Below, piece by piece: positions 3,095 through 31,705 of a stretch of DNA of 64,000 bases. The notes below the pieces were generated by a model. The model ran no database searches, had not been told where the DNA came from, and saw nothing but the letters and a program-made list of their open reading frames with translations. Both the position numbers and the translations under genes were made by a program. Every line of letters starts with the position of its first letter. Position 1 is the stretch's first letter. Source of the DNA: an uncultured Eubacteriales bacterium (lineage in GTDB: Bacteria > Actinomycetota > Coriobacteriia > Anaerosomatales > PHET01); contig CAYOHY010000007.1 in the NCBI GenBank assembly GCA_964403885.1, forward strand, positions 5,635 to 69,634, read 5' to 3'.

Positions 3095-4206
3095 CCTTCC
3101 TCGGCGATCATCGCCCGAACTCGCTCGCACACCTGCTGGCACGCGTTGTGCCGCCCCATCTCTGAAACATTGCCCCTCATCTGAGCGAGCCGCTCGGGGT
3201 GACTGGAAAGGTAGCGGACCTTGTCGATCGCATCCTCGTCATCGCGCGCCACCAAAGCGACGCCCGCGTTGACGAGCTGGTCAGCGTTGAACCTCTCCTG
3301 CCCCGCAATCGGATTATAGATGACCAGAGGCACTCCCAGCGCTAATGCTTCCGCATGGGAGGCCGACCCCATACGGGCACAGACCACATCGGCCGCCTTG
3401 ATCGAGAGTGCTCGCGACGCCGTGTCTCCCACCAGTCTCAGGGGACCGGGCGAACCCACACCCTCGAGACGACGAGCCGCGCGCTCGTCGGCCGAGACGA
3501 CCACCACTTGGATCCCGGCCGCACTCAGACCCAACGCGATCGCCGCGGCGTCGACTTCTCCGGCCGCCGCCGACATCGTGACGGTGAAACGGTCACTGAG
3601 CCCCAGCTCAGCGCGGCACCCGGTCGCCGCATGGGCCTTGGTGGTGCGCTCCGAGACGGGAATGCCCGTGACCATGATGCGGTCCCACGCGACACCGCGC
3701 ACCACCAGCTCCTCACGGACCTCTTTGGTGGGTACGAAGAACAGCCTCACGTCAGGGTGCAGCCAGGTCAGCCGAGGACTCATGTCGGTCAGCACGTGGA
3801 AGACCGGCACCCCCGCCGGCGAGACCTCGGCGCACACCGCGGCCGCAAGCGACGAGGTCGCTATGACCGCGTGAGGACGGACCCTGCCGAGCAGCGCAAC
3901 CGCACGCTCGAGTCCGCTCGACTCGAGCTCCTGCATGACGTTGCCGAACACGCAGACCTGACGGGCTCGCTCCAACGTGCCCGTCAGCGCGGGCAGGAAG
4001 GCCTCGTCATGGCCGTAGGCGATGCGAGCGAGTACCGCGGTGGCGGGCAACACCTCTTCGAAGAAGTCGATCGTCTCGGCATCACAGTGGTCAGCCAAGA
4101 CCGACCGGTGATAGCGGTACAGCGCGTCGCTTACGGAGCGTGACAGTCCGCCAAGCGTGTCGCCCACGATCAGAATACGTCGCTTGTCGGAGCGACGTCG
4201 GGGCAT
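3091..4206 (-). CDS. GT28/MGDG-synthase-like glycosyltransferase (diacylglycerol or lipid-linked sugar transferase family)
   Basis: N-terminal ILIVGDTLGG, and a C-terminal half with GSASHAEALALGVPLVIYNPIAGQERFNADQLV, resembling MurG/MGDG-synthase C-domains. ATG 4206 shares one base with the upstream TGA (TGATG). Confidence 0.75.
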   Translation of the reverse strand: MPRRRSDKRRILIVGDTLGGLSRSVSDALYRYHRSVLADHCDAETIDFFEEVLPATAVLARIAYGHDEAFLPALTGTLERARQVCVFGNVMQELESSGLERAVALLGRVRPHAVIATSSLAAAVCAEVSPAGVPVFHVLTDMSPRLTWLHPDVRLFFVPTKEVREELVVRGVAWDRIMVTGIPVSERTTKAHAATGCRAELGLSDRFTVTMSAAAGEVDAAAIALGLSAAGIQVVVVSADERAARRLEGVGSPGPLRLVGDTASRALSIKAADVVCARMGSASHAEALALGVPLVIYNPIAGQERFNADQLVNAGVALVARDDEDAIDKVRYLSSHPERLAQMRGNVSEMGRHNACQQVCERVRAMIAEEG

Positions 4207-4988
4207 CAACCCACCGCCGCTCGGTGCTTGGTGAGCCGAACCAGCGTGCCGCCCAGCGGCGAGACATCGAACTCCACGTTGTCCATGAGCGCACGCATGA
4301 ACATGACGCCGCGTCCACCGGGGGCATAGAGGTCATCGTTGCCCGCGTGTACCCCGTCGAAGCCCTGACCGGCATCCATGACCTCGAGCACGACCCGGTC
4401 TTCGAACGCGATGACGCCGATACCCACGTGCCCCTCGCCCGTGCCAGGGGATCCATGGCGCACAGCGTTCGCAAGTGCCTCGCCCAGCGCGACCTTGATG
4501 TCGAAGAGCGCGGAGTCAGGAAAGCCGAGCGGTACGATCAGATCGCACACTCGTTCCCGGGTCTCACTCAGGCGGTTCACGTCGGGAGTCATCGTGAGGT
4601 CTTCGCGCCACAGCAACGAGGCGGGCGCAAAGGGCAGCTCGAGACCTTCGAGCGCAGCTGCGACGTTTGCGGACATGCCCACGGACTCAGCGACCGATAC
4701 CAGACCTGAAAGCTCCAGAATGCGCCCCACGTCCTTGGTCGCCCCAGCCAAGACGAGACGGCCGCCCACCGGTTTGAGCATGTGATCGAGCCACACGAGA
4801 AGCCCGAGCGCCGAGCTGTCGGCATAGTCGACACAGCTCAGATCGAGCACCACGTTCCGGGAGCCGGTCTTGAGTGCGGTATCAAGCCGCTCGCGGAGTT
4901 CAGGCACCACCGCGACGTCGATATCACCGGCAAGCCGCACCACGCAGGCACGGGGTCCGACCTCTTGAGAGATCTCGAATTGCGTCAT
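4206..4988 (-). CDS. Single-chain fusion of a STAS anti-sigma-antagonist domain and an RsbW/SpoIIAB-like HATPase serine kinase domain
   Basis: The N-terminal half has the STAS pattern (VVLDLSCVDYADSSALGLLV, with a DSS phospho-serine motif). The C-terminal half has an N-box EALANAVRHG, a G1 box DAGQGFD and a G2 box GGRGVMFMRAL. The start abuts the stop of the upstream PP2C gene. Confidence 0.8.
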   Translation of the reverse strand: MTQFEISQEVGPRACVVRLAGDIDVAVVPELRERLDTALKTGSRNVVLDLSCVDYADSSALGLLVWLDHMLKPVGGRLVLAGATKDVGRILELSGLVSVAESVGMSANVAAALEGLELPFAPASLLWREDLTMTPDVNRLSETRERVCDLIVPLGFPDSALFDIKVALGEALANAVRHGSPGTGEGHVGIGVIAFEDRVVLEVMDAGQGFDGVHAGNDDLYAPGGRGVMFMRALMDNVEFDVSPLGGTLVRLTKHRAAVG

Positions 4989-7900
4989 CTATGTGCCGAA
5001 CCCTTCATGCGGGCCGTCGTGTGTCTTGACGATGGTACCCGCAATCTCGACCACCAGAACCGCCACGTCGTCTTTGAGTCCCACCCTCACAAACGACTGG
5101 ACCGCACGAAGCAGGTCCGCGGGCGCATCGATAGCGCGAATCGACGCGCCGAACACCTGATCCACCCGTTCCTCGCCAAAGAACTCGCCCTCGAACCGAC
5201 CCTCCGTCACGCCGTCGGTATAGAGGAGCACCGCGTCACCTTCACCCAACCGCACGCTCTTCTCCGCATACGCTGCGTCGATCGCGGCGCCGAGCAGCGG
5301 CCCGGTGACCCCCAGGCGCTCGATGGTACCGTCAGCACGGCGCAGTACCGCAGGCGGATGTCCGCCATCGGCCCATGCCAGCTCTCCGGAGTGCGGATCG
5401 AGGCGGCCGAGCCACGACGTGACGATGTCGCTCGCATCTCCCGATTCACCCACGAAACGGTTGAGTTGGGACATAGCCTCAGCGGGCCCCAACCCGGCGG
5501 ACACCAATGCGCGCGCCGAGTACTTGATCATCGACGTCTTGGTCGCCGCCCTGACCCCCTTGCCGCACACATCGGCGATGGTGAACCATATCGCTCCGTC
5601 GGGCGCTCTGAACAGGTCGTAGTAGTCACCGCCGATCTCGGCGTCACCACCTGCAGGCCGATACTCCGCTGCCGCCCTGATCTCGGCGAACTCGGGAAGG
5701 GCCCCCGGAAGGATCGACCTCTGAAGAGTCTGGGCCACGTCGTGCTCTCGGCTGTAGAGACTCGCAGTGTCGATCGCGAGCGCGGCCTGCGTCGCGAAGG
5801 TCTGCAGCATGTTCAGGTCCTCATCGGCGAACGCACCCGGTCGCACCGAGAAGACCATGAGCACGCCGATGGGCCGCCCGCGCGCCATGAGCGGCACTGC
5901 GAGCAGCGAGCGCAAGTCGTGACTTGCCGCAGAGCCCGCGAGCCCGTCCATGCTCGCGTGCAGGTCCCTGACCGATACCGGTTGTCCGGTCTTGAACACG
6001 TGACCGGGCAGGTCCTCACCCGGCTTGACCTCGAGGTAGAGGACCGAGGGCGGCACCGCACCGCGCGCCATCGAGGTCGCAAGCGAGCCCTTGCGTGAAT
6101 CGTGCAGCAGCAACGCGACCGAGTCGGCCGAAAGGATCTTTTGGACGACGTCGAGCACTCGGTTGAGGACGACATTGACCTGCAACGAGGAGCCCACGGC
6201 CTGGCTGATGCGGAAGATCGTCTCAAGGTTCGCGGCGCGCGTCAGGGCACGTTCGTAGAAGAACGCGTTGTCGAGTGCGAGCTCGAGCTCGTCGGCCAAC
6301 GCCGAGGCGATCCGAAGCGACTTGCCGGTGTGGTCCGCCGCGGAGAGGGCGATCATCATCACCGCACCATGATCTGTGTCGAGGCCGACGGGAACCACGA
6401 GTAGCTCCGCAGCATCGAACTCGACCAGCAAACGGTCACCCTCCGGCCCGTCTCCCAGCATGTGAACGACCGGGTTTCCATCGCCTCGGGACAACACCCT
6501 GAGGCCCGCGGCAAGGAACTCGGGGTCGCGGCCGCGAGCCGGATCGTCAGGCAGGCCAAGCGCTGCTCGGTCCACCAGCAGGATGCTTGCGAACGGCGCC
6601 GACAGCACGTCGCGGATGATCCACTCGACGACACCCAGGGCCTTGCCGAGCCCGTCCGGCCGCACCAGCTCCTCCGCGACGGCGCGCAGCGCCTCGGCCA
6701 CCTGCCGAGACGCACTCTCCTCCTCGAACAGGCGTGAGGTCTGCACTGCGACCGCAGCCTGAGCCGAGAATGTGCGCACCATCTCCCGCTCGGCCTCACT
6801 GGCCTCTTGGCCGGCGTCTCGCAAGACGACGACCACGCCGAGCGCCTCATGACCGGCGAGCAACGGGGCCGCCAATGCCGAGGAATGGGAACCCGCAAGC
6901 CCGGGCAGCTCTGCCGAGAACTCAGCGGGTGAGCCGATGAGGTCCACCGGCGAGGACGAGTACAAGGCGCGGGCCAACCAGCCCCCGACGTCGACCTTCA
7001 CCGGCTCCGCGGCCGCGAGATCGATGCCTCGCGTTCGAACCGGCGTCAGCAGTGACCCGTCGCCTTCGACCAGGTAGATCGCCGCCCCGCCGGGTCCGAC
7101 GATGTGCCCCATCGCCGAGAGGATGCCGTCGAGCACCTGGTCGACCTGTGAGGCGCTCGCGAGCAGTTGCGAAAGATCGTGCAGGGCATTGAGGCGCAGC
7201 GCGAGATCGTTGAACGCCTCAGACACTGCGCCGATCTCATCAGCGCGACCCACGGGAAGCGGCTTGACGTAGGAACCGGCCGCCGCGCTGCGCGCAGCAC
7301 CCTCAAGGTCCCGCAGAGGCCGCACGAGACGCTGCGAGACGCCCCAGGCGGCAGCGATGGCGACCACGCCGCCGAAGATCAGCACCATGACGGCGGGCGT
7401 CACCGCGCGCATCGTGTCGCGCATCGCAACTTGCGCCGGCTCGACCACCATGATGCGCCAGTCGATACCGTCAAGGCCCTGGATGTCGTTGTACTGGCCG
7501 CCCAGCGGTGTGCCGTCGACGGAGGGTACGGTCACCCGTCCACTGCCCGCCGTCACCGGCGTCCAGCGTGCGCGTGAGAGCTGCGGTGAACTCGCCCCCG
7601 AATTCGCGATGATGCTGCCGCGATCGAGAACCGCCACCGTCCGGCCGCTCAGCTGCGCTGATACCTCCCTGACGATGCCGCCCAAGAAGCCGGTGTCGAC
7701 CTTTGCCACGAGAATCACCGGGCGGCCCGCCGACGATACGAGGGTTCGGACGAACCACAGGTCCGAGCGACTCTTCGACCCGGTCCCGGCGTGCGCGATG
7801 TATCCCGTGCGCCCATGAGCGATATCGCTGAAGACGGGCTCCGAGGCGATCGATGAGATCGGCGCCGCTCCCGGCATCGATGCGACCACCGAGCCGTCGG

Positions 7901-8231
7901 GCCGAACGAGGTAGGCAGCGTCAAGAGACCCGCGCTTGCGCGCGAGCATCATCGTGAACCGTGAGGTCATCTTCTGCGGTGAGCTCTCTTGCGCCATCTG
8001 GAAGGCAACATCAGCGAGGTAGCCTTCAAGGTCGCGAAGCTCGCTCTCAGTGCGGTCCTCGATGAACTGGACCGCAAGAACGTCACGTCCTTCGGCCTTC
8101 TCAACGGAAAGCCGGGAAGTGGAGACAAGCGCCACCGCTCCCGCAGTGGTCACGGTGATTGCTCCGATGAGGAGCGTCACGCGGACGATGCGGGCGGCGA
8201 GACCCCCTGGTGTGCGCAGTTTCGCAGCCAC
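4989..8231 (-). CDS. Transmembrane sensor phosphatase: extracytoplasmic domain flanked by 2 TM helices, HAMP, multiple GAF domains, C-terminal PP2C (SpoIIE/RsbU-type)
   Basis: TM helices near residues 13-36 and 275-300. HAMP-like region RPLRDLEGAARS...ADEIGAVSEAFNDLALRL. Repeated GAF-like segments. PP2C motifs GGDYYDLF and DVCGKG. GTG start with GGAGA upstream. Confidence 0.85.
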   Translation of the reverse strand: MAAKLRTPGGLAARIVRVTLLIGAITVTTAGAVALVSTSRLSVEKAEGRDVLAVQFIEDRTESELRDLEGYLADVAFQMAQESSPQKMTSRFTMMLARKRGSLDAAYLVRPDGSVVASMPGAAPISSIASEPVFSDIAHGRTGYIAHAGTGSKSRSDLWFVRTLVSSAGRPVILVAKVDTGFLGGIVREVSAQLSGRTVAVLDRGSIIANSGASSPQLSRARWTPVTAGSGRVTVPSVDGTPLGGQYNDIQGLDGIDWRIMVVEPAQVAMRDTMRAVTPAVMVLIFGGVVAIAAAWGVSQRLVRPLRDLEGAARSAAAGSYVKPLPVGRADEIGAVSEAFNDLALRLNALHDLSQLLASASQVDQVLDGILSAMGHIVGPGGAAIYLVEGDGSLLTPVRTRGIDLAAAEPVKVDVGGWLARALYSSSPVDLIGSPAEFSAELPGLAGSHSSALAAPLLAGHEALGVVVVLRDAGQEASEAEREMVRTFSAQAAVAVQTSRLFEEESASRQVAEALRAVAEELVRPDGLGKALGVVEWIIRDVLSAPFASILLVDRAALGLPDDPARGRDPEFLAAGLRVLSRGDGNPVVHMLGDGPEGDRLLVEFDAAELLVVPVGLDTDHGAVMMIALSAADHTGKSLRIASALADELELALDNAFFYERALTRAANLETIFRISQAVGSSLQVNVVLNRVLDVVQKILSADSVALLLHDSRKGSLATSMARGAVPPSVLYLEVKPGEDLPGHVFKTGQPVSVRDLHASMDGLAGSAASHDLRSLLAVPLMARGRPIGVLMVFSVRPGAFADEDLNMLQTFATQAALAIDTASLYSREHDVAQTLQRSILPGALPEFAEIRAAAEYRPAGGDAEIGGDYYDLFRAPDGAIWFTIADVCGKGVRAATKTSMIKYSARALVSAGLGPAEAMSQLNRFVGESGDASDIVTSWLGRLDPHSGELAWADGGHPPAVLRRADGTIERLGVTGPLLGAAIDAAYAEKSVRLGEGDAVLLYTDGVTEGRFEGEFFGEERVDQVFGASIRAIDAPADLLRAVQSFVRVGLKDDVAVLVVEIAGTIVKTHDGPHEGFGT

Positions 8232-8326: not shown

Positions 8327-9073
8327 TCATCCGGTCAGGCCGGGCAGCGGGACCTCGATCGCGGGCACGAAGTTGAACAGCCACGACGCCAAGACACCCA
8401 ACCGGCCGGTGACGATCAGCACTCCCACCACTATCAGCAGCGAACCGGCGACTCGGTTGATGATCAGCGAGTGCTTGTTGAGCCACCTCATCACCACTCC
8501 CAGGCGCCCGAACAACACCGCCACCAGCACAAAGGGCACCCCGAGACCCAACGAGTAGACGAGAAGAAGCAACGCGCCCTGACCCACCGACTCCGAGGAG
8601 CTTGCGAGGGCCAGGATCGAGGCGAGGATCGGCCCCACGCATGGTGTCCAGCCGGCGGCGAACGCCATTCCCATGACAAGCGCCGCTCCCCTGCCGAAGT
8701 TGCGCGAACGCTCCATGTCCACCCGGGCCTCGCCGTAGAGCCACGGCACTTTGATGATGCCGAGCATCAGCACCCCGAAGCCGATGACCGCTAGCCCTCC
8801 CACCTTCTCGATGATCACGCGGTACTCGGACAGGAACTGACCCAGCACCGAGGCGGTCGCGCCAAGCGACACGAAGATGAACGTGAAGCCGGCGACGAAC
8901 ATGAGTGACGGAACGAGTACCTTGCTCGTGGAGGTCTGCGCGTCTCGCAGCTCAGCGGCGGTCAGGCCTGTCATGAACGAGAGGTATCCCGGAATGAGCG
9001 GGAGGACGCACGGCGACAGAAACGAGACAACACCCGCAGCGAACGCGATCAGAACCGATAGTGCCAGCGGCAT
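8327..9073 (-). CDS. ccdA: CcdA/DsbD-family thiol:disulfide electron-transfer membrane protein
   Basis: Two signature cysteine motifs, LSPCVLPLIPGY and WTPCVGPIL, in a 6-TM protein. Start set at ATG 9073 (MPLALSV...), with GAGGAG 11 nt upstream, rather than the track's GTG at 9085. Confidence 0.85.
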   Translation of the reverse strand: MPLALSVLIAFAAGVVSFLSPCVLPLIPGYLSFMTGLTAAELRDAQTSTSKVLVPSLMFVAGFTFIFVSLGATASVLGQFLSEYRVIIEKVGGLAVIGFGVLMLGIIKVPWLYGEARVDMERSRNFGRGAALVMGMAFAAGWTPCVGPILASILALASSSESVGQGALLLLVYSLGLGVPFVLVAVLFGRLGVVMRWLNKHSLIINRVAGSLLIVVGVLIVTGRLGVLASWLFNFVPAIEVPLPGLTG

Positions 9074-9119: not shown

Positions 9120-9148
9120 AGCATACCCTCTGGGGTATCGGTATGCAA
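9120..9148 (-). promoter_or_regulatory. Sigma-70-type promoter with embedded CsoR-type palindromic operator (ccdA)
   Basis: The minus strand reads TTGCAT-accg-ATACCCCAGAGGGTAT-GCT: -35 TTGCAT, a 17-nt spacer and -10 TATGCT. The palindrome ATACCC-N4-GGGTAT fills the spacer. The same 29-bp layout occurs at 16709..16737 and 17750..17778. Confidence 0.55.
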
Positions 9149-9149
9149 C

Positions 9150-9656
9150 TTACTCCGCGACTATGACACCGCACGCTTGGCCTGACACTGAGCTGAGCGG
9201 GTACACGCCTGGCCGAAGTCCGGGCAACCTGATCACGGTGCCGCCCTCCGTCAACCGGAACGACAGTCCCAAGGCCTCGAGTTTGACGTACTCGGTGCAC
9301 CCCTCGCCCTCGGAGAACACGACTTCGACGGGCTCGCCCGCACGTACCGTGATGTGATTGGGCGTGAGGTATCCGCGCGATGCGTCTATGTCGACACGCT
9401 GCTCGCCGCTGACCTGCAGCGCTCGCACGGGCTGAGACAACACCTTCTGCTGAGCGTACACCGTGGTCGCGGGGTCATACAGCGTGCCCGCATAGGCCGC
9501 GGATCGCATCCCCTGACGCGCCGAATCGACAAGCTGGTGCGATGCGGCGAACGAGTAACCGGCCACCACGACGAGCGCGGAAAGTGCCGCAACGGCGAGA
9601 TACGCGGTGGTACCTGGCCTGGCTACGTCGTGGATGGCCGGTCGATTCGCGAACAT
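9150..9656 (-). CDS. Membrane-anchored cupredoxin-like domain protein (Cupredoxin_1-like, two Cys)
   Basis: One N-terminal TM (TAYLAVAALSALVVVAGYSF). The C-terminal ITVRAGEPVEVVFSEGEGCTEYV...GVYPLSSVSGQACGVIVAE resembles the small cupredoxin-like domains found in metal-resistance loci. Start moved to ATG 9656, just after the copZ stop. Confidence 0.6.
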   Translation of the reverse strand: MFANRPAIHDVARPGTTAYLAVAALSALVVVAGYSFAASHQLVDSARQGMRSAAYAGTLYDPATTVYAQQKVLSQPVRALQVSGEQRVDIDASRGYLTPNHITVRAGEPVEVVFSEGEGCTEYVKLEALGLSFRLTEGGTVIRLPGLRPGVYPLSSVSGQACGVIVAE

Positions 9657-9663
9657 CAGTGCG

Positions 9664-9885
9664 TCAGGCCTCCAGGTCTGCCTCGTAACCGGCACCCTGG
9701 ATCGCGGAGATGATCGCCTCAGGCGTGACGACAGCGTCATCGTAGGTGACCACGGTCAAGCCGGTGGCGTGGTCCGTCTTGGTCGACTCGACGCCGGCCA
9801 GGTCGGTGAGCGTCATATCGACGAGCATCGAGCACGAGCTGCAGTGCAGTCCGGATGTGACGAAACGAGAGGTCTTCTGAGCCAT
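9664..9885 (-). CDS. copZ: Heavy-metal-associated (HMA) domain metallochaperone, CopZ-like
   Basis: MAQKTSRFVTSGLHCSSCSMLV... carries the GxxCxxC metal-binding loop in a 73-aa ferredoxin-like-size protein. AAGGAGG lies 7 nt upstream of ATG 9885. The track ORF (to 10161) is an upstream in-frame extension. Confidence 0.85.
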   Translation of the reverse strand: MAQKTSRFVTSGLHCSSCSMLVDMTLTDLAGVESTKTDHATGLTVVTYDDAVVTPEAIISAIQGAGYEADLEA

Positions 9886-9935
9886 GGGGTAGTCCTCCTT
9901 GGTGTATCCGAGCATCCTCGGCACGACCGACACGG

Positions 9936-9951
9936 TGCGAGCAGTGTGCCA
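9936..9951 (-). promoter_or_regulatory. Candidate sigma-54 (-24/-12) promoter upstream of copZ
   Basis: The minus strand reads TGGCACACTGCTCGCA. GG-N10-GC spacing is exact, the -24 element is perfect, and the -12 element is TCGCA (one mismatch to TTGCA). It ends 50 nt before the copZ ATG. Confidence 0.55.
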
Positions 9952-10000
9952 ACAACGCCGCCCGGGAGGCAACCTGAACGCGGGTGAATCGAGCGCTGGG

Positions 10001-10330
10001 CTAGGCCTGCTGCTGATCGTCGAGACGCGCTCCGCAGTGAGGGCACAAACGCCAGTCCTGACCGACGTCCTGGCCGCACTCCGTGCACGAACGTGTCTGA
10101 AGATCGGGGCCGACGCTGCGATCACGCGACCGCCCGGAGCCCAACAGCAGCACGGCGACACCGATCACCAGCCCGGCAGCCACCGGAGGAATCCACCCAA
10201 GGCTGGCGGCGATGGTCGAGTGCAGCTCCGCCTCAGGACCCACAAGGCGGGCAACCACGACGAAGAGCATGCCGAACGCTCCGCCGACAAGGGCGGCGAA
10301 CGTAAAACGGATGAGCGAGCGAGCGGTCAA
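10001..10330 (-). CDS. Small membrane protein with C-terminal zinc-ribbon (CxxC...CxxC)
   Basis: Two hydrophobic helices followed by CTECGQDVGQDWRLCPHCGARL. TTG start with GGAGA 6 nt upstream. Confidence 0.6.
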   Translation of the reverse strand: MTARSLIRFTFAALVGGAFGMLFVVVARLVGPEAELHSTIAASLGWIPPVAAGLVIGVAVLLLGSGRSRDRSVGPDLQTRSCTECGQDVGQDWRLCPHCGARLDDQQQA

Positions 10331-10369
10331 CGGTGTCTCCGAGCGTGCAGGGGTGCCACGCCACAGAAG

Positions 10370-10385
10370 TGCAACACGTGTGCCA
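10370..10385 (-). promoter_or_regulatory. Sigma-54 (-24/-12) promoter, consensus match
   Basis: The minus strand reads TGGCACACGTGTTGCA, an exact TGGCAC-N5-TTGCA. It starts 5 nt after the EBP stop and ends 39 nt before the TTG start of the Zn-ribbon gene. Confidence 0.7.
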
Positions 10386-10390
10386 GCGGG

Positions 10391-11737
<1,347 letters not shown>

Positions 11738-11754
11738 TGTCCAGTCCTTCCGTG

Positions 11755-13284
11755 TCAGTCCATGGAGGCGGGCAGGGTGACCGTGAACGTGGTCCCCTCC
11801 CGAGAGCTTTCCACTTCGATGTGCCCGTCATGCTCATCGATGATCCTGTGCACGATCGTGAGACCAAGCCCCGTACCCTCGGCGCGCTTGGTGAAGAAGG
11901 GGTCGAACACTTTGCTGAGGTCGTTGGGATCGATGCCGGGCCCGTCGTCGACCACCGAGACGACCACGTAGTCCTGGTCCCCGGCGGCGTGTATCGAGAT
12001 CGCTCCGCCGGTCTCATCCATCGCTTGGACCGCGTTGGTGACCAGGTTCAAGAACACCTGCTTGAGCTGATCGGGGTCTCCGGCCACCCGGGGTAGGTCT
12101 TCGGGAGCCTCCAGCGTGATGTAGACATCGGCCTGCCGAGCGAACCGGTTGGTGAACAGCACCACGTCCTCCAACACGCTCGCAAGGTCGGTGTCCACGA
12201 GCGTTGGCTTGCTCGGGCGACCGAAGTCCAGCAGCGCCTTGATGACCTTGTCGAGCCGGTCGATCTCTTGCTTGATGACCTCTGCCGCATCATGGATGCG
12301 CACCGGATCGCAGTTCGCGTCCTCGAGCAACTGCACGCTCGCGCGGATGACGCCGAGCGGGTTTCGGACCTCGTGAGCGACACCGGCCGTGAGCTCACCC
12401 ATCGCCGCCAGCCTGTCGGCCCGGATGAGTTGATCGGTGAGCGCCTTGATGTCGGATACGTCCTCGAGGGTCACGACGGCGCCAAGAACGCTTCCACCCA
12501 CCGCCCTCATCCGGGACGTGGACGCTTGCACGTGAAGCTCCGTGCCGTTGGGAGTGACCAGCGTGGCTTCGCGCAGCGCGAGAGGCATCCGGCCGGAGAG
12601 CACCTTGGCCACGTCGGCCGACAGGCCGGCGTCGTCGCGGAAGATGGCACCGATGGGCTTGGGCACCATCTCGAACTCGGACATGCCCAGCATTCGCTCG
12701 GCTGATGGGTTCGCGGTCGCAACCGAGCCGTCAGGGCCCACCGTGAGCACTCCCGAGGTGATGGAGCGCAGGATCGATGAGGTGTAGTCCTGCACGTTGA
12801 TGAGCTGGATCGCGCGCTCTTCCAGCTTGCGGTAGGCCTCCTCGAGCTGAAGCGACACCTGACGCAGATCCTGCGTCTTGGCCTCCTCGATGTCGCGGAC
12901 CGCACCAAAGAGCAGACCGATCAAGAAGTACGAAGCGACTTCGATCGCGTTGTCGAACCCCAACCCCAGCTGCGAGTTGAGCGACAGCTCCGCATGGATC
13001 ATGAACGGCACCGACGCTGCGGTCGCGGCGATGACCCCTCCCCGCTTGCCGAACACCCACGCGGCATAGATGACCGGGATGAAGTACAGGCGCCGGTAGA
13101 GGAGGTGAAGCGGGATACTGCCCGGAACCACGTTGGTGAACAGATGCAGCATGGTGATGAACACGAGCATGACAGCGATGACAGCGATGGCTCGCACGTC
13201 TCGCGAGCGTGCGGCATCGCCCACGTCCTCACCGTTGGAGCGCGGTGCAGGGCGCCGAGGCAACCCTATCCGTTCAGGCGTCAT
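11755..13284 (-). CDS. Membrane sensor histidine kinase (multi-TM N-domain, PAS, HisKA, HATPase)
   Basis: H-box AAMGELTAGVAHEVRNPL, N-box NLVTNAVQAM, G boxes DDGPGI and GTGLGL. Four or five N-terminal hydrophobic helices without a large external loop. Start set at ATG 13284, forming an ATGA overlap with the rpoN stop. Confidence 0.85.
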   Translation of the reverse strand: MTPERIGLPRRPAPRSNGEDVGDAARSRDVRAIAVIAVMLVFITMLHLFTNVVPGSIPLHLLYRRLYFIPVIYAAWVFGKRGGVIAATAASVPFMIHAELSLNSQLGLGFDNAIEVASYFLIGLLFGAVRDIEEAKTQDLRQVSLQLEEAYRKLEERAIQLINVQDYTSSILRSITSGVLTVGPDGSVATANPSAERMLGMSEFEMVPKPIGAIFRDDAGLSADVAKVLSGRMPLALREATLVTPNGTELHVQASTSRMRAVGGSVLGAVVTLEDVSDIKALTDQLIRADRLAAMGELTAGVAHEVRNPLGVIRASVQLLEDANCDPVRIHDAAEVIKQEIDRLDKVIKALLDFGRPSKPTLVDTDLASVLEDVVLFTNRFARQADVYITLEAPEDLPRVAGDPDQLKQVFLNLVTNAVQAMDETGGAISIHAAGDQDYVVVSVVDDGPGIDPNDLSKVFDPFFTKRAEGTGLGLTIVHRIIDEHDGHIEVESSREGTTFTVTLPASMD

Positions 13285-14675
13285 CGACGGCGCCTCGCCC
13301 ACGAGGGTTCGATGCCGAGCTCCTCACGGTACTTGGCGACGGTGCGGCGGGCGACGGTCACGCCCTCGTCCGACAGGATCTCGGCGAGCTTCTGATCGGA
13401 GAGTGGTTTGGCGATGTCCTCGGCTTTGACCAAGTCACGCAGCCGCTGCTTGATCGTGGTGGCGGCGACGTCCATCCCCTGCGCGGTGCGGTAGCCGCCG
13501 CTGAAGAAGTGCTTGAGCTCGAACAGTCCGTACGGCGTGGCCATGTACTTGCCGGTCACGCCTCGCGACACCGTCGACAGGTGCACACCGATCTCCACCG
13601 CCACGTCCTCGAGCCGCAGGGGCCTGAGCGGGCCCTTGCCGTCCTCGAAGAAGTCACGCTGGACGTCGATGATGATCTCGGTGATCCGGCTGACGGTGTC
13701 CTTGCGGCGATCGACATTCTTGATGAAACTCTCCGCCGATCGGATCTTGTCCTTGAGATAGCGCTTGGTCTCGTCGTCGGCGGTCGATCCGGTCTTGAGC
13801 ATGGCGCGGTAGCGCGGAGACACCCTCAACGTGGGCAGCGCCTCGTTGTTGGGGATGATGAGCCAGTCGTCGTCGAAACGCCGTAGCGTCACGTCCGGCA
13901 CGATGTAGCCTGGCGACGGACCGGGCGAGAACGCACCGGCAGGACGCGGGTTGAGAGCCTTGAGTATCTCGACGAGCCGGCGGACCTCTGCCTCATCGAC
14001 ACGGAGGGCACGAGCGACCTTGCGGAAGTGGTTCGATGCGATGTCGTCGAGATGCTCTTTCACGATACGCATGAGAAGCGGCTCGTCGATGCCCAGGAAC
14101 TCCATCTGGAGGCACATCGCCTCGGCAAGGTCACGGGCAGCGACACCGGGCGGATCGAGCTGCTGGACCGCCTTCAAGCCGGCCTCGGCAGCCTGCTCAT
14201 CGACACCCACGAGCGCTGCGACCTCGGCGAGTGAGCCCCTGAAGAATCCGTCGTGGTCGAGCGAGCCGATCACGGCTTGGGCTGCGTGCTGTGTGTCCTC
14301 ATCGATGTCAAGCAGCGCGAGCTGGTCGAGTAGATAGTCGTCAAAGCTCTGAACGCCGCCGACGAACTCCTCGGTGTTGGCCTGCTCGGCGTTTGGATCG
14401 CGAGGAGACGTGGTCTCTATCTGGTCGAGATCCTCGTACATCTCGATCCACTCGTCCCAGGATCGTTCATCCTCGGCGGAGTCCTCGGTGGGCTCTTCGC
14501 CCTCGACGGGCTCGCTGTCGGTCTCGTCGACCTCGAGGACCGGGTTCTCGAGCATCTCGACTTCGATGAGCTGCTGAAGCTCGGCGACGGGCATCGCGAG
14601 GATGTTCAGCCCCTGGTAGACCTGGGGCGAGAGTGTCACCTTCTGGCGCAGCTCGGGGCGCTGCTGGAGATCCAT
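13281..14675 (-). CDS. rpoN: RNA polymerase sigma-54 factor
   Basis: N-terminal MDLQQRPELRQKVTLSPQ (region I), an acidic region II, and a C-terminal RpoN box ARRTVAKYRE. Start at ATG 14675 with GGGAGGGGG upstream. The track ORF start (14894) is an Arg-rich extension. Confidence 0.9.
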   Translation of the reverse strand: MDLQQRPELRQKVTLSPQVYQGLNILAMPVAELQQLIEVEMLENPVLEVDETDSEPVEGEEPTEDSAEDERSWDEWIEMYEDLDQIETTSPRDPNAEQANTEEFVGGVQSFDDYLLDQLALLDIDEDTQHAAQAVIGSLDHDGFFRGSLAEVAALVGVDEQAAEAGLKAVQQLDPPGVAARDLAEAMCLQMEFLGIDEPLLMRIVKEHLDDIASNHFRKVARALRVDEAEVRRLVEILKALNPRPAGAFSPGPSPGYIVPDVTLRRFDDDWLIIPNNEALPTLRVSPRYRAMLKTGSTADDETKRYLKDKIRSAESFIKNVDRRKDTVSRITEIIIDVQRDFFEDGKGPLRPLRLEDVAVEIGVHLSTVSRGVTGKYMATPYGLFELKHFFSGGYRTAQGMDVAATTIKQRLRDLVKAEDIAKPLSDQKLAEILSDEGVTVARRTVAKYREELGIEPSWARRRR

Positions 14676-14725
14676 TGCCGCCCCCTCCCGTGGTACTCGC
14701 GGGCCGCATCGGGAGCGCGACCCTC

Positions 14726-14741
14726 TGCAAGAATCATACCA
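14726..14741 (-). promoter_or_regulatory. Promoter candidate upstream of rpoN (ambiguous: sigma-54-like TGGTAT-N5-TTGCA or extended -10 TGgTATGAT)
   Basis: The minus strand reads TGGTATGATTCTTGCA. GG-N10-GC spacing is correct, but the same bases also read as an extended -10 element (TGnTATGAT). About 50 nt upstream of the rpoN ATG. Confidence 0.35.
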
Positions 14742-14763
14742 CTTTCTGGGAGGTCTCTGACGC

Positions 14764-15732
14764 CTACTCCTGTGGAGGAATCGTGGGGAGCGGGTCCTTC
14801 TCGGGCAGCTGTATGACCGCGATCGCCGCGATGACCATCGCCCCGCCCACCAGCTGAGACACCGTGAGCGCCTCACCAAAGAGCAGGAAGGCACCCAGAC
14901 CCGCGATCACGGGCTCGACCGTCGAGGTGACCGTGGCGTTGGTGGGCGGAATGAGCCGCAACGCGACGAGGAAGGCGCCGAACGGGATGATGGTGCTCAC
15001 AACGGCCATGAACAGCACCGCTGCCGCGGTCCCGGGGTCCGCGAATGCGCTGAGCACCTTCATCGGACCCAGCACGAGAAGCCAGAACGCCGCCGCGAAC
15101 CCCAGACCGAAGACCAGCGTCGTGAATGGCCTGAACCGGCGGGCCGCCACACTGCCCATGAGGGAGTACGTCGCGAAGAACGCCGCCGAGGTCAGACCCC
15201 ACGCGATACCGGCCGGCGAGACGGCGAGCCCCTCCCCGCTCAGGGCACCGACGACGAGCGCACAGCCGCTGACCGACAGCGCCACACCCGCGGGAAGCGT
15301 CCAGGTGAGCTTGTGGCGCAAGAACAGCACGCTCACGATCAGCACGATGACCGGCGCCATGTACTCCAGCAGAATCGCGGTCGCCACGCTCGTGAGCGAG
15401 ATCGTCTTGAAGTAGGTGTAGTGCACGCCGGCAAGCCCGACCACGCCGAATACTGCGAGAAACGGTATGTCCTTGCGTTCGACACGCAAGGCGTCGCGCT
15501 GGGCGAAGAGCAGGTATGCGATGAGCAGCACGAACGCGGACAGGGCACGACCCGCGGACAGGACCGTGGGCTCGATGGTGATCCCGAGCGGAGGAAACGG
15601 CCACTGTGCGGTCTCGGGCGAGGGCTGACTGAACAGCCACTTCGCCATCAGCCCGCCACTCGCCCAGCACGTCGCAGCCAGCAGCGCGAGCCCGTATCCT
15701 TTGAGCCGGTCGGCCTTAGCTTGTGCGTGCAT
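14764..15732 (-). CDS. EamA/DMT-family transporter (10-TM)
   Basis: Two repeated 5-TM halves, each with an EamA-like pattern (ATCWASGGL..., VATAILLEYMAPV...). Overlaps the CDF gene by 17 nt. Confidence 0.8.
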   Translation of the reverse strand: MHAQAKADRLKGYGLALLAATCWASGGLMAKWLFSQPSPETAQWPFPPLGITIEPTVLSAGRALSAFVLLIAYLLFAQRDALRVERKDIPFLAVFGVVGLAGVHYTYFKTISLTSVATAILLEYMAPVIVLIVSVLFLRHKLTWTLPAGVALSVSGCALVVGALSGEGLAVSPAGIAWGLTSAAFFATYSLMGSVAARRFRPFTTLVFGLGFAAAFWLLVLGPMKVLSAFADPGTAAAVLFMAVVSTIIPFGAFLVALRLIPPTNATVTSTVEPVIAGLGAFLLFGEALTVSQLVGGAMVIAAIAVIQLPEKDPLPTIPPQE

Positions 15733-16681
15733 CGAGCTCCGCTTGGGTCTTGCTCGCTTGGTACTCGTCGTAGGGTTCGAGATGTGCGATCACGTCGACG
15801 ACCTGCGGGAACTCCGTGGCGATGGTGCGCTCCACGTCCTCGGCGATGCGGTGTCCGTCAGCCACGGTACGGGTCTCGTCCACCTGCACGTGCAGATCGA
15901 CGTAGACCTCGGCCTCGGAACCGCGCGTGCGCACGTGGTGACAGCCCAAGACTCCCGCGACCGACATCGTCACGGCACAGATGTCGGCGACAGGGATGCG
16001 GGCAGAGTCGGACAGCGTTGCACTGGCCTGCTTGAACACGCCCCACGCCGTGTACACGATCGCGATCGCGACAAGGCCTGCCACGATGGGGTCGGCTTTG
16101 AGCAGAAGGTCGTTCCCGGTCACCTCGCCGATCTTGACCAGCGCGAGCGAGAGCAAGACGCCCAGGCTGACGAGGATGTCTGAAGCCGTGTGGCTCGCAT
16201 CGGCGACGAGGATCTCCGAGCCCAACCGCTTGCCCACGCGACGCTCGTACGTGGTGATGAACACGTTGATACACAGCGTGATGATCATGATGGCGAACGA
16301 CGCAGCGGTGACGTTGGGCGCCACCGCCTCGCCTGTCAGCTGTTGAACCGCGCTCGAGCCGATGCGATACGCGGCAAACAGGAGCATGGCGCCGATCGCG
16401 GCCGATGCGTACGTCTCGTACTTGCTGTGCCCGTAGGGGTGGTCATGGTCGGCGGGGCGCGCCGCGAGTCCCATGCCCACCAGCCCCACGACGTTGCTCG
16501 TGCCGTCGAACAGCGAGTGGAACCCGTCCGCCTGCATCGCTGCGGAGTGGATGTAGGTGCCGTAGGCCAGCTTCGACAGGGCGACGCCAAGGTTCAGGAA
16601 CAAGATGATCCACAGCACCCTGCGGATCTCCCTGATGCGGCTCGCACCCACCTCCGCGCCGTTGGTCTTGGTATAGCCCAC
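15716..16681 (-). CDS. Cation diffusion facilitator (CDF) family metal efflux protein
   Basis: Six-TM N-domain with the HSAAMQADGFHSLFD and ILVADASHTASD metal-site motifs (HxxxD / HxxxD) and a C-terminal cytoplasmic domain. GTG start with a G-rich RBS. Confidence 0.85.
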   Translation of the reverse strand: MGYTKTNGAEVGASRIREIRRVLWIILFLNLGVALSKLAYGTYIHSAAMQADGFHSLFDGTSNVVGLVGMGLAARPADHDHPYGHSKYETYASAAIGAMLLFAAYRIGSSAVQQLTGEAVAPNVTAASFAIMIITLCINVFITTYERRVGKRLGSEILVADASHTASDILVSLGVLLSLALVKIGEVTGNDLLLKADPIVAGLVAIAIVYTAWGVFKQASATLSDSARIPVADICAVTMSVAGVLGCHHVRTRGSEAEVYVDLHVQVDETRTVADGHRIAEDVERTIATEFPQVVDVIAHLEPYDEYQASKTQAELDARTS

Positions 16682-16708
16682 AGCCCGTCGCCCCTCTCTC
16701 GGACACGC

Positions 16709-16737
16709 TTGCGCTAGATACCCCTAGGGGGCATAGT
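16709..16737 (+). promoter_or_regulatory. Sigma-70-type promoter with embedded CsoR-type operator (csoR-like gene; shared divergent region with CDF)
   Basis: The plus strand reads TTGCGC-tag-ATACCCCTAGGGGGCAT-AGT: -35 TTGCGC, a 17-nt spacer and -10 CATAGT. The palindrome lies in the spacer. The -10 ends 42 nt before ATG 16780. Confidence 0.55.
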
Positions 16738-16779
16738 GAACGTATCGGTACGACCTACGGTAGCAAACCGGAGCCTAAG

Positions 16780-17373
16780 ATGCCCGAGATTCCCACGCCC
16801 ATAACCGTCCCCAACGCGGACGAGCGACGCAAGATCGTCAACAGGCTTCGACGCCTCGAGGGGCAGGTCCGCGGCCTGCACGCGATGATCGAGTCGGGCA
16901 AGGAGTGCGAGGCCGTCCTCACGCAGGTCATGGCCGTGAAGTCCGCGCTCAACCAGGTGGGCATGCACGTCATCGGCCACGCCATGAAGACGTGCCTTGT
17001 GGACGAGTCGCTCACTGCGCGTGATGATCTCATCACCGCCGCGTTCGATGTCTACCTGCACTACCGGGAGCTGAGCGCGGCGACCGAGGCAGCCGCAACC
17101 CCCCGAGACACCTCACCCGAGTTCATCAAGGCGAAGCTCAAGACCCTCGAGGCACAGGTGCAGTCGGTTCAAAACGTCATCGAGACCGAAGGCGACTGCG
17201 AGAGCGCGCTGCGTGGTGTCACGGAGTCCACGGCCACGCTCAACGATGTCGCGCGGGCGGTCTTGGGACACGCGATGCAAAAATGCCTGATCGATGACGC
17301 CGCACAGTCTCGAAACGACGTCATCGACCAGGCAATACAGGTCTTCTTGCGCTACTCCTCGTGCGTCAAGTAG
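16780..17373 (+). CDS. csoR: Tandem-duplicated CsoR/RcnR-family metal-sensing repressor (two DUF156 domains in one chain)
   Basis: Domain 1: IVNRLRRLEGQVRGLHAMIESGKECEAVLTQVMAVKSALNQVGMHVIGHAMKTCL. Domain 2: KLKTLEAQVQSVQNVIETEGDCESALRGVTESTATLNDVARAVLGHAMQKCL. Both keep the Cys...His...Cys positions. 197 aa, against the usual 90-110 aa. Confidence 0.85.
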   Translation: MPEIPTPITVPNADERRKIVNRLRRLEGQVRGLHAMIESGKECEAVLTQVMAVKSALNQVGMHVIGHAMKTCLVDESLTARDDLITAAFDVYLHYRELSAATEAAATPRDTSPEFIKAKLKTLEAQVQSVQNVIETEGDCESALRGVTESTATLNDVARAVLGHAMQKCLIDDAAQSRNDVIDQAIQVFLRYSSCVK

Positions 17374-17383
17374 TGGACCGCGT

Positions 17384-17707
17384 CTAACCGCCCAGGCCCA
17401 GCTCCCGATACAACGCGTCCGCGTTACGGGCGCCCACCACGGTGGCGGTCACCTTGCCGCCCTCGAACTTCGCGATCGTGGGGATGCTCATGACGCCGTA
17501 TTCGATGGCGACCTCTCGGGCCTCGTCGATGTTGAGCTTCACGAACTTGGCTCCGTCGCCCACCCGCGCGGCCAACTTGTCCACTTCAGGGGCCACCATG
17601 CGGCACGGGCCACACCACGGGGCCCAGAAATCAACGACAACGGGCTTGTCGGACAGCAGAACCTCGTCATCGAACGACTTGGCGGTTATCTCCATCGCTG
17701 CACTCAT
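17384..17707 (-). CDS. trxA: Thioredoxin
   Basis: WCGPC active site in DFWAPWCGPCRMVAP. A 107-aa protein from ATG 17707, with AAGGAGA upstream. The track start (17797) is an upstream extension. Confidence 0.9.
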   Translation of the reverse strand: MSAAMEITAKSFDDEVLLSDKPVVVDFWAPWCGPCRMVAPEVDKLAARVGDGAKFVKLNIDEAREVAIEYGVMSIPTIAKFEGGKVTATVVGARNADALYRELGLGG

Positions 17708-17749
17708 CCGGCTTCTCCTTCTTCCCATCACCTGTCTGGAACAGTCGTA

Positions 17750-17778
17750 ATTATACCCCTTGGGGTATCGCCTCGCAA
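17750..17778 (-). promoter_or_regulatory. Near-consensus sigma-70 promoter with perfect CsoR-type palindrome (trxA; divergent to the chelatase-like gene)
   Basis: The minus strand reads TTGCGA-ggcg-ATACCCCAAGGGGTAT-AAT: -35 TTGCGA, a 17-nt spacer and -10 TATAAT. The perfect 16-bp palindrome ATACCCCTTGGGGTAT is at 17753..17768. Confidence 0.65.
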
Positions 17779-17833
17779 GTCGGCCGAGTTGGGTCATGTG
17801 TCAACGAGTATCATCTTCCCCAGGGAGGAGACC

Positions 17834-19069
17834 GTGGATCCGACACGACTCACATGGCTGGCTTTGATCGCGGGCGCGCTGGCGGCCGGCGCGGCCGTCG
17901 TGGGCATCCTCGTCGTGCGTCGGCGCCTCGAAGTTGTGGTGGCGATCATCGGATCCGTCGGCGCGGTGAGCGCATTCACCGCGTCAGCGAGATTGACCGC
18001 TCACTACGAGCGCCCTGAAGCAGCCGTCTGGTCGCTCGTCTTCGTGTTTGCCGCGGGTGCCGGAGGCTATGCGCTCGCCTCAACGCTTCTGTATCGGCTC
18101 GCTCGCGAGGCGGGTCATCCCACGATGAGCCGCGAGGGAGCCCCCGCACGCGATCGTGCGGCGGTCGTCCTGACCGCCTGCGCCGAGCCGGCTCACTACG
18201 ACCCCGGCGCCACCGCTCAGATGCTGCAGTCGCTGGCCGACGAGGGGCTGCTCGAACCCTCTGTCGGTGCGTTGCCGCTCTTGTTCTTCGGTCAGAAGGC
18301 CCGCTACCGGGCCGCAGGTGACGTGAGTCCCGCTATGGCCGGCCTTCGGGCGGTGGCCGAGCACCTCGAGGAGACTCTCGCGGACACGGCTGATGTGTCG
18401 ACAGCGACGTGCTCGGGCGACGGCTCCCTCGCCGACGTGGTGGCCCTGGCGGCACAGGCCGGGTACCGCCGAATCGTGATCTGCGTGCTCGCCGTGGGAG
18501 AGTCCATGCACATGGACATGGCGCGCGGCGCAGTGGAACAGCTTCGCCTGGGCGAGTCCGGGGTGACGGTCGTCTCCACGGGCGCCCTGTGGTCATCCGA
18601 ACGGATCATCTCGGCCCTCACCCAACGCATCATGCACGGCGTGGATGACCCGGCCGCCACAGGGGTCGTGCTGGTCGGCCACGGGCAACCGGAGGAGCGA
18701 GCGAGAAGACACCGCTCCTTCGACGAGCAGGAGATGGCGTTTCTGAGCAGGCTTCGGATGGCCCTGGCCGATCGAGGACTGTCCGAGGACTGGGTGCGCA
18801 TCGCATGGGACGACTGGACCGAGCCCGACGTCACCTCGGCGGTCAGGCACCTTGCGGCGCTGGGCGCGAAGCGCGTTCTCGTGGTACCGGCGACGTTTCC
18901 TCTCGACACGCTCGGGACTCGGCTCGACCTTGAGATCGCAGTCCGTCAGGCCCGAGTGAACGAGGGCGTCGCAGTCATCACGATGGCGGCATGGCGCGAC
19001 AGTGACGCGGTGATCGAGGAGTTGCGCAGCCGAGTAATAGCCGCGCTGGAAACACCAGCGGGCGCCTAG
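17834..19069 (+). CDS. Membrane-anchored class-II-chelatase-like protein (ferrochelatase/CbiX-like fold, divergent)
   Basis: Start set at GTG 17834, with GGGAGGAG 6 nt upstream. About 3 N-terminal TM helices. A soluble part follows, with VVLVGHGQP, RVLVVPATFPLDTLGTRLDLEI and overall two-lobe colinearity with ferrochelatase/CbiX as I recall them. Assignment is tentative. Confidence 0.5.
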   Translation: MDPTRLTWLALIAGALAAGAAVVGILVVRRRLEVVVAIIGSVGAVSAFTASARLTAHYERPEAAVWSLVFVFAAGAGGYALASTLLYRLAREAGHPTMSREGAPARDRAAVVLTACAEPAHYDPGATAQMLQSLADEGLLEPSVGALPLLFFGQKARYRAAGDVSPAMAGLRAVAEHLEETLADTADVSTATCSGDGSLADVVALAAQAGYRRIVICVLAVGESMHMDMARGAVEQLRLGESGVTVVSTGALWSSERIISALTQRIMHGVDDPAATGVVLVGHGQPEERARRHRSFDEQEMAFLSRLRMALADRGLSEDWVRIAWDDWTEPDVTSAVRHLAALGAKRVLVVPATFPLDTLGTRLDLEIAVRQARVNEGVAVITMAAWRDSDAVIEELRSRVIAALETPAGA

Positions 19070-31438: not shown

Positions 31439-31705
31439 GTGTCCGTGCACTCCTGCCTCCTTCATATCGCAACGCTTCCCGACCGGTCTTGCGACGGCCT
31501 CGGCCGACGAAGAACGGCCCCTCTTGTCCTCGTGGTCCCGGGCGCCACACACGCGTTCCCTCTGGCGTCAGGACAACCCTGAAAGTGTCCCCGAGAATGC
31601 ATCAAATGACAAGCCCGTTGCATAGACTCGTCGGTGCATGTCGCAGGGTACCTCCGCAGACCACGACCTAGTCCCAGTATCTTCCCGAAATCGACGGAAA
31701 GCAAA

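Follow-up and report, generated by a model that had tools for sequence, protein, structure and literature searches.

A conserved thiol-redox mini-regulon predicted for a dithiol CsoR/RcnR-family repressor of uncultured Coriobacteriia

We analyzed a 64,000-nucleotide stretch of DNA from an uncultured bacterium of the Coriobacteriia (contig CAYOHY010000007.1, positions 5,635 to 69,634; hereafter the window), in which the promoters of ccdA, trxA and a gene for a tandem CsoR/RcnR-family (PF02583) regulator each contain a G/C-rich palindrome. Sequence and conservation together indicate a real, deeply conserved mini-regulon that follows the repressor-operator logic of a known family, and we predict that the three palindromes are almost certainly operators of the adjacent PF02583 repressor. 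The chief support for the sites being real is their phylogenetic footprint, which we regard as decisive. The modules and the regulator gene are as follows.

9148..9120, minus strand: ccdA module; -35 TTGCAT, accg, core ATACCCCAGAGGGTAT (9138..9123; TAC-X8-GTA), GCT; -10 TATGCT
17778..17750, minus strand: trxA module; -35 TTGCGA, ggcg, core ATACCCCAAGGGGTAT (17768..17753; TAC-X8-GTA), AAT; -10 TATAAT
16709..16737, plus strand: regulator module; -35 TTGCGC, tag, core ATACCCCTAGGGGGCAT (16718..16734; TAC-X9-GCA), AGT; -10 CATAGT
16780..17373, plus strand: regulator, 197 aa, tandem CsoR/RcnR-family protein; PF02583 at 1e-32, in two stretches

The modules had been proposed by an initial annotation made from the letters of the window, and each reads exactly as given there. 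The hexamers are separated by 17 nt in all three, and in each the palindrome shares its last bases with the -10 element, a position that fits repression by steric occlusion, as that annotation had argued. Its proposed likeness to CsoR operators was also borne out, the palindrome agreeing with the published Streptomyces consensus ATATACCCCTNAGGGGTATAT and its TAC-X9-GTA core (PMC3902906). The pattern ATACCC-N3-6-GGGTAT matched twice in the window versus 0.00 matches expected (100 shuffles), and a 16-mer search allowing up to three mismatches returned the three sites and one unrelated match versus 0.63 expected. A generic sigma-70 scan called the trxA promoter alone (10/12 matches). The annotation's statement that the window holds no further copy stood, as relaxed searches yielded half-sites and one unrelated match only: TACCCCGAGGG at 30225 is a half-site inside a solute-binding-protein open reading frame (ORF; 29729..31552), TACCCCAAGGG at 31773 is a half-site in what looks like the 3'-terminal stretch of a minus-strand ORF, and the three-mismatch match at 63455 lacks a palindrome; none of these was counted.

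The comparison set, obtained from a genome scan, consisted of 80 species-level loci from OPB41/Anaerosomatales-like Coriobacteriia (81 with the window), with ~20 kb of sequence per related locus and 1.43 Mb in all; nine of the 80 encode a tandem regulator and 71 a single-domain form of 96-116 aa. Homologues of the regulator were confined to uncultured Coriobacteriia or Actinomycetota genomes, and an identical protein was present in two further assemblies. Gene order across the set is almost invariant: PP2C, ccdA, a palindromic site, copZ, (Zn-ribbon), ntrC, histidine kinase, rpoN, then EamA, CDF, a second site, regulator, trxA, a third site, chelatase, PHP and aminotransferase. A strict TACCC-N-GGGTA palindrome was found upstream of the regulator in 81/81 loci (the window included), upstream of trxA in 68/70, with one more carrying a single mismatch (69/70), and upstream of ccdA in 41/62, to which L014 adds a one-mismatch site in promoter-like context (~42/62). 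Elsewhere in the 1.43 Mb it matched only three times. This conservation across ~80 species supports the earlier claim, made from the window, that ccdA, trxA and the regulator gene form a local regulon.

The register between palindrome and promoter is conserved as well. The TA of the right half-site opens a TAnnnT -10 element in 80/81 regulator, 53/68 trxA and 35/41 ccdA sites, and a TTG -35 lies 16-18 nt upstream in 81/81 regulator and 65/68 trxA sites (spacer of 17-18 nt at the regulator; TTGACx at trxA). Spacing class is fixed by site: the regulator site always has the 15-nt form, TAC-X9 (81/81, with right dyad GTA save in the window), and the trxA site the 14-nt TAC-X8-GTA form (68/68). In a different member of the family, affinity shifted 10- to 15-fold when the half-sites were set one base further apart or closer together (PMC10318464), and the fixed difference between X9 and X8 plausibly sets two affinity tiers here. 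The window's autoregulatory operator is the sole case among the 81 loci in which the right dyad is GCA, not GTA; the same T-to-C change makes its -10 the weaker CATAGT and leaves the window as the single regulator site without a TAnnnT -10. Two further assemblies of the same sequence (L001 and L002) also lack a strict match at this site, consistent with the same variant, and because these assemblies are independent an assembly error is disfavoured. In S. lividans CsoR, swapping the dyad bases at both operator ends abolished binding (PMC3902906).

The genes that adjoin the sites, with the promoter elements discussed below, are listed here.

17384..17707, minus strand: trxA, 107-aa thioredoxin with WCGPC; PF00085 at 3.6e-29; TIGR01068 at 112.6 bits (cutoff 96.8)
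8327..9073, minus strand: ccdA, DsbD_TM-family membrane thiol-disulfide electron transporter; PF02683 at 3e-15
15716..16681, minus strand: CDF; PF01545 and PF16916; divergent from the regulator
14764..15732, minus strand: EamA-family transporter; PF00892; reading frame overlaps that of CDF
16765..16757, minus strand: candidate extended -10 of CDF-EamA, TGcTACCGT; the regulator operator would lie at about +16..+32 of the transcript
17809..19069, plus strand: chelatase-like membrane protein; GTG at 17834; PF00762, PF01903; own -10 TATCAT at 17809..17814

The trxA gene starts at ATG 17707, with the same 107-aa gene call in L001; its 3' end converges with that of the regulator, and it is divergent from the chelatase-like gene. 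For ccdA, the start is more likely ATG 9073, which has GAGGAG 11 nt upstream, than GTG 9085. The ccdA gene lies 7.6 kb from the regulator block, with a copZ-like HMA gene and a cupredoxin-like ORF upstream of it, and the two operator-bearing blocks are separated by rpoN, a histidine kinase gene and an NtrC-type activator gene. From the -10 elements, transcripts are predicted to begin near 17743 (minus strand) for trxA, 9113 (minus strand) for ccdA, 16744 (plus strand) for the regulator and 16750 (minus strand) for CDF.

The CDF-EamA pair is probably a fourth regulated unit. It adjoins the regulator operator in 77/81 loci, and in the four listed without a CDF match (L055, L056, L068 and L071) EamA itself adjoins the operator. 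The distance from the CDF start codon to the operator's left edge has a median of 26 nt, and across the 81 loci minus-strand TAnnnT hexamers peak 15-30 nt to the right of the operator, with 84 in three 5-nt bins versus ~1-5 per bin beyond 30 nt; in ~28 loci a TTGnnn element precedes the minus-strand hexamer at 16-18 nt, mostly 16. On this evidence, transcription of CDF-EamA most likely begins immediately beyond the regulator operator and has to cross it, so the pair is probably co-regulated. On the other side, the chelatase-like gene is probably outside operator control. Its -10 lies 35-45 nt from the edge of the trxA operator and points away from it in most loci, and the operator can be assigned to trxA because six loci without a trxA match (L026, L061, L063, L064, L073 and L076) also have no palindrome before the chelatase gene. 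The earlier count of up to five transcription units thus needs adjusting: CDF-EamA, with its conserved -10 and a transcript predicted to read through the operator, probably stays in, and the chelatase-like gene probably drops out.

Repeat 1 of the regulator (about residues 12-103) contains C43, C72 and the RLRR DNA motif; repeat 2 (about residues 113-196) contains C140, C169 and C195, and its DNA motif is degenerate. The helix-1 motif NRL(R/K)RLxGQxRG is present in repeat 1 and in all 71 single-domain orthologues, with R22, Q29 and R31 invariant, and includes the RLXR (RXXK/R) element known as the DNA-contact motif of the family (PMC3902906, PMC8643695) and required for binding in S. lividans CsoR (PMC3902906). 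Both cysteines are invariant and 29 residues apart, as in CstR, in the 81 orthologues and in both repeats of the tandem form. At the Y position, which precedes the second Cys by four residues, 81/81 proteins have Ser or Ala, and the window's regulator has Ala in each repeat; HMMER alignments to the Cu sensor CsoR 4m1p and the Ni sensor InrS 5fmn likewise place Ala at the metal-ligand His position, with His67 offset by one residue. The residue preceding the first Cys, which we take to correspond to Tyr35 of M. tuberculosis CsoR in a register that agrees with those HMMER alignments, varies among Asp, Glu and Gln in the single-domain proteins and among Glu, Ala and Asp in repeat 1. Further features of the clade are an invariant His63, His at position 67 (Tyr in 22/81) and a conserved Cys in a C-terminal YSSCV. 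The N-terminal segment is variable in length and sequence, with no conserved His or Cys and with P, S, A, T, V or other residues at position 2, and therefore offers neither a W ligand nor an FrmR-type Pro2.

The fingerprints of the Ni/Co and formaldehyde sensors were absent from this protein. It has neither the RcnR/InrS/DmeR Ni/Co set (H-C-H-H or H-C-H-C; RcnR model 49 bits versus a cutoff of 138) nor the set of the formaldehyde sensor FrmR (P-C-H-x, Pro2 lying next to the sensing Cys; FrmR model 52 bits versus 133), and the RicR model scored 66 bits versus 175. No name can be transferred to the regulator because no NCBIfam equivalog cutoff was reached, and it is about equally similar to Cu, Ni and persulfide sensors of solved structure (44-51 bits). 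From its residues, the regulator is best described as a dithiol x-C-x-C family member with a CstR-type fingerprint, unlike a Cu(I) C-H-C sensor. A family-wide network analysis assigned the x-C-x-C clusters as persulfide sensors, and the CstR operator, ATATACCCTTATGGGGTATAT, is of the same type as that of CsoR (PMC8643695). Because persulfide-sensing CstR uses this operator type, the operator DNA marks the family and not the effector. The initial annotation had implied a Cu(I)-sensing CsoR, an identity that we do not retain: the Cu(I)-ligand His is missing from both repeats and from all 81 orthologues, and the operator is uninformative on the effector.

The d1 and d2 repeats of the tandem proteins are each monophyletic, which points to one ancient internal duplication. 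The d1 repeat keeps NRLRRLEGQxRG, containing the RLXR element, and d2 has lost R22, Q29 and R31, keeping both Cys and the C-terminal Cys; d2 also evolves faster, with a mean identity of 43% among d2 repeats versus 58% among d1. An AlphaFold monomer model shows 2x3 helices (mean pLDDT 86, pTM 0.80), and each of its repeats aligns to CstR, CsoR and InrS chains with TM ~0.62-0.71 (normalised to target). When the whole tandem model was searched against the PDB, nothing matched significantly over its full length; the solved chains are single repeats, so only the per-repeat matches are informative. Repressors of this superfamily are characterized by assembly into tetramers, two of which occupy an operator. 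From its sequence, the tandem product would be a covalent pseudo-dimer in which repeat 1 alone carries the DNA motif and both repeats carry sensing Cys. Literature searches on tandem or duplicated CsoR-family proteins found nothing relevant, which does not in itself prove that none has been published.

We also considered whether the tandem form arose when two adjacent csoR genes fused. Where the regulator is single-domain, the space between it and trxA contains other ORFs (a CxxC-pair zinc-ribbon ORF, FmdB-like by eye, and unrelated ORFs) and no second PF02583 gene; because of this, and because d1 and d2 are each monophyletic, we rejected fusion. In many related loci a small same-strand ORF with two CxxC pairs (MPxYELxCxxCG...) follows trxA, for example at 10747..10941 (minus strand) in L012 and 10693..10893 (minus strand) in L006; it resembles an FmdB-type zinc ribbon by eye and is absent from the window, where trxA abuts the 3' end of the regulator gene.

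Our preferred reading, which we hold with slightly better than even confidence, is that the repressor senses thiol-reactive species through its Cys pair and in this way controls trxA, ccdA, its own gene and the CDF-EamA leader. From the sites, their conservation and register, the protein family and its residue fingerprint, all of which are observed, we infer DNA binding, occlusion, the effector and a reset by thioredoxin in the following way. The reduced dithiol repressor would sit on the palindromes, and because the operator fills the spacer and shares bases with the -10 element, bound repressor would exclude RNA polymerase at the trxA, ccdA and regulator promoters; it would probably also block the divergent CDF-EamA leader. 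Modification of the Cys pair by persulfide/polysulfide, disulfide-forming oxidants or electrophiles would lower DNA affinity, the reacting pair being C43-C72' in single-domain proteins and C43/C169 plus C140/C72 in the tandem form. Release would derepress thioredoxin, the CcdA reductant exporter and the transporters, and newly made thioredoxin could re-reduce the repressor, closing the loop. Supporting this reading are the x-C-x-C fingerprint, the precedent of the dithiol family member TTHA1953 (PMC10318464; described below) and the content of the regulon, namely a thioredoxin together with a DsbD_TM-family (CcdA-type) membrane protein. Sulfur/thiosulfate and iron respiration and the multihaem cytochromes c of the OPB41/Anaerosomatales lineage (PMC9686372) also fit.

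Several observations weigh against the thiol-stress reading. The ccdA and regulator promoters fall under the threshold of the generic sigma-70 scan, and the GTA dyad is altered (T-to-C) in the window's own autoregulatory site. None of the sulfide-detoxification functions found alongside known CstRs (sqr, persulfide dioxygenase, rhodanese, CoA-persulfide reductase, TauE) appears in the conserved gene order or among the Pfam-scanned large ORFs of the window. The most constant neighbour of the regulator is a CDF metal-efflux pump, a classic metal-sensor layout, and a copZ-like gene lies just upstream of ccdA. Finally, His63 and His/Tyr67 on helix 2, together with the C-terminal Cys, could form a metal site.

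These observations bear on two alternatives in which the ligand is a metal. The regulator might sense a thiophilic divalent metal (Zn, Cd, Co or Ni) at a Cys2(His) site, with the CDF exporter as its primary target and with trxA and ccdA repairing thiol damage, in a layout of the DmeR-DmeF or CzrA-CzcD type. Such a role would account for CDF(-EamA) adjoining the regulator operator in 77/81 loci with a promoter that reads through it, and for the invariant His63, the His or Tyr at position 67 and the conserved C-terminal Cys; the CDF has both transport-site H-x3-D motifs (HSLFD and HTASD, read from the translation), and its nearest NCBIfam model is a Zn-efflux equivalog. The CDF's score is, however, below every NCBIfam equivalog cutoff, and no known metal fingerprint of the family is present, with no His or Cys at W, no His at Y, and Cys at Z. 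His67 is replaced by Tyr in 22/81 proteins, and the four loci without a CDF match (L055, L056, L068 and L071) nevertheless keep regulator, operator and trxA. We consider this alternative rather unlikely. A genuine Cu(I)-sensing CsoR controlling a thiol-repair pair for copper stress, for which ScsB/ScsC would be an analogue, seems to us more doubtful still. An operator indistinguishable from Streptomyces CsoR sites (PMC3902906), two cysteines able to bind Cu(I), and the copZ-like HMA gene and cupredoxin-like ORF directly upstream of ccdA are what such a sensor would lead one to expect. All recognised Cu clusters, however, keep His at Y, as C-H-C or C-H-H (PMC8643695), and here Ser or Ala stands in its place in 81/81 proteins, nearly all have Asp or Glu where the second-shell Tyr would be, and the RicR model reached 66 bits against its cutoff of 175. 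The Pfam-scanned large ORFs of the 64-kb window include no copA (P-type ATPase), and in 67/70 loci a sigma-54-type motif stands between the ntrC-like gene and the Zn-ribbon and copZ-like genes downstream of it; copZ is outside operator control because both it and this motif lie upstream of the operator.

The palindromes might instead be bound by another factor, or be conserved promoter features with no dedicated repressor. This is very improbable, as 81/81 genomes have the site upstream of their PF02583 gene, it is all but missing from the rest of the 1.43 Mb, and it agrees with the family's experimentally defined operator in its TAC/GTA dyads and G/C tracts (PMC3902906).

A bolder form of the thiol-stress reading, which we offer tentatively and think possible but not probable, is that the CsoR-family dithiol switch is the lineage's master thiol-stress regulator, reset by thioredoxin, with the tandem protein of the window's sublineage as an asymmetric pseudo-dimer and X9/X8 spacing setting affinity tiers. 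Known functional analogues among master thiol-stress regulators are sigmaR-RsrA, Spx and OxyR. If this were true, both tandem repeats would sense and one would contact DNA, a natural, covalently linked counterpart of the "functional asymmetry" reported for tetrameric CstR, and the X8 targets would be derepressed before the repressor's own X9 gene.

The surroundings of the two blocks contain further genes and motifs that we record here as separate observations.

9664..9885, minus strand: copZ-like HMA gene; PF00403 at 1e-12; upstream of ccdA
9150 to about 9656-9740, minus strand: cupredoxin-like ORF; PF13473 at 24.8 bits, below the cutoff of 27
14741..14726, minus strand: sigma-54-like site TGGTATGATTCTTGCA, upstream of rpoN
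10385..10370, minus strand: sigma-54-like site TGGCACACGTGTTGCA, right after the ntrC-like gene
9951..9936, minus strand: sigma-54-like site TGGCACACTGCTCGCA, just before copZ

The stop codon of the cupredoxin-like ORF at 9150 abuts the ccdA -35 at 9148, with no space for a terminator. A cupredoxin-like ORF is found in a minority of related loci (L009, L024, L028, L034, L080 and L082 among those seen); among these related loci it lies between copZ and ccdA in L028 only, and in most of the set copZ directly precedes the ccdA operator. A sigma-54-like TGGYAY-N5-YYGCW motif occurs upstream of rpoN in 72/78 loci (by 43-79 bp in the listed examples), and a second such site follows the ntrC-like gene directly in 67/70; the window has the further copy just before copZ. 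Together these motifs suggest a self-activating rpoN-histidine kinase-ntrC unit that would drive copZ and read towards ccdA.

Directly downstream of ccdA lies a 1080-aa ORF, read by eye as a HAMP/GAF/PP2C-type phosphatase (region 4206..8231, minus strand), followed by a protein in which STAS and HATPase_c_2 domains are fused, a pairing known from anti-sigma antagonists and anti-sigma kinases. PAS, GAF and SpoIIE domains occur together in a second protein, encoded at 23128..25293 (minus strand), and the PP2C-type, STAS-HATPase_c_2 and SpoIIE proteins suggest a partner-switching module. A 1124-aa ORF at 39752..43126 (minus strand), between a cofD-like gene and uvrC, gave no Pfam match at E<=1e-4. 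The remainder of the window contains the housekeeping genes uvrA, uvrC, whiA and gap-pgk-tpi and an oligopeptide ABC system.

The CsoR/RcnR family serves as a model of the evolution of varied effector specificities on a single small fold, and several of its large clusters are still uncharacterised (PMC8643695). The present locus offers a clean comparative-genomics case, in which an x-C-x-C clade is paired with a three-operator thiol-redox regulon and not with metal-efflux or sulfide-detoxification genes, and its conservation spans an order-level lineage of subsurface anaerobes. A natural single-chain pseudo-dimer could help to dissect half-of-sites reactivity and single-face DNA binding, which is hard in symmetric tetramers. 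Cultured OPB41 strains exist (PMC9686372), in which the predictions could be tested if they carry the module.

Among characterized relatives, CstR (S. aureus, E. faecalis, S. pneumoniae/S. mitis; clusters 4 and 10 of the family's sequence similarity network) and the actinomycete cluster 3 share the PF02583 fold with our regulator (PMC8643695). Like CstR, it has the x-C-x-C pattern, its two Cys at a spacing of 29 residues, lacks His at Y, has an acidic residue preceding the first Cys, and uses an operator of the ATACCC-N-GGGGTAT type. Sensors of the CstR type are characterized by release from DNA once their Cys pair is persulfidated or cross-linked. It differs from CstR in having no sulfide-detoxification genes nearby and a regulon of trxA, ccdA and CDF-EamA, as well as in its invariant His63, His/Tyr67, C-terminal YSSCV Cys and tandem members, and it scores no better against CstR (36-44 bits) than against Cu or Ni sensors. 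With the Cu(I) sensors S. lividans CsoR and M. tuberculosis RicR (x-C-H-C) it shares a near-identical operator (ATATACCCCTNAGGGGTATAT, TAC-X9-GTA), the helix-1 RLXR, autoregulation and promoter overlap, but it lacks the Cu-ligand His and second-shell Tyr and its targets are not copZA or other copper genes.

TTHA1953 of T. thermophilus is a dithiol CsoR-family repressor whose C39 and C68 are likewise 29 residues apart; it binds DNA only when reduced, an intersubunit disulfide lowering its affinity, and it regulates a sox operon headed by the thioredoxin SoxW (PMC10318464). Its operator, TACNNTACNNNNGTANNGTA, has no G/C tract, however, its regulon serves Sox sulfur oxidation, and its neighbouring ccdA is unregulated. 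A literature search for CsoR with CcdA returned TTHA1953 only, which is no proof that nothing else has been published. The suggestion that a thiol-redox pair is an unusual target holds for Cu-CsoRs, but less so for dithiol members, given the thioredoxin-led sox operon of TTHA1953 (PMC10318464).

The arrangement of a CsoR/RcnR-family repressor divergent from a CDF exporter is shared with the RcnR/DmeR Ni/Co sensors. DmeR-DmeF is an example of such a sensor paired with an efflux gene. Unlike these proteins, our regulator lacks the H-C-H-H ligand set, and its operator is a CsoR-type G/C-tract palindrome. Set against these systems, what is new is the asymmetric tandem architecture, of which literature searches found no report, the residue signature of the clade, and the conserved regulon itself, which comprises thioredoxin, CcdA, CDF-EamA and autoregulation.

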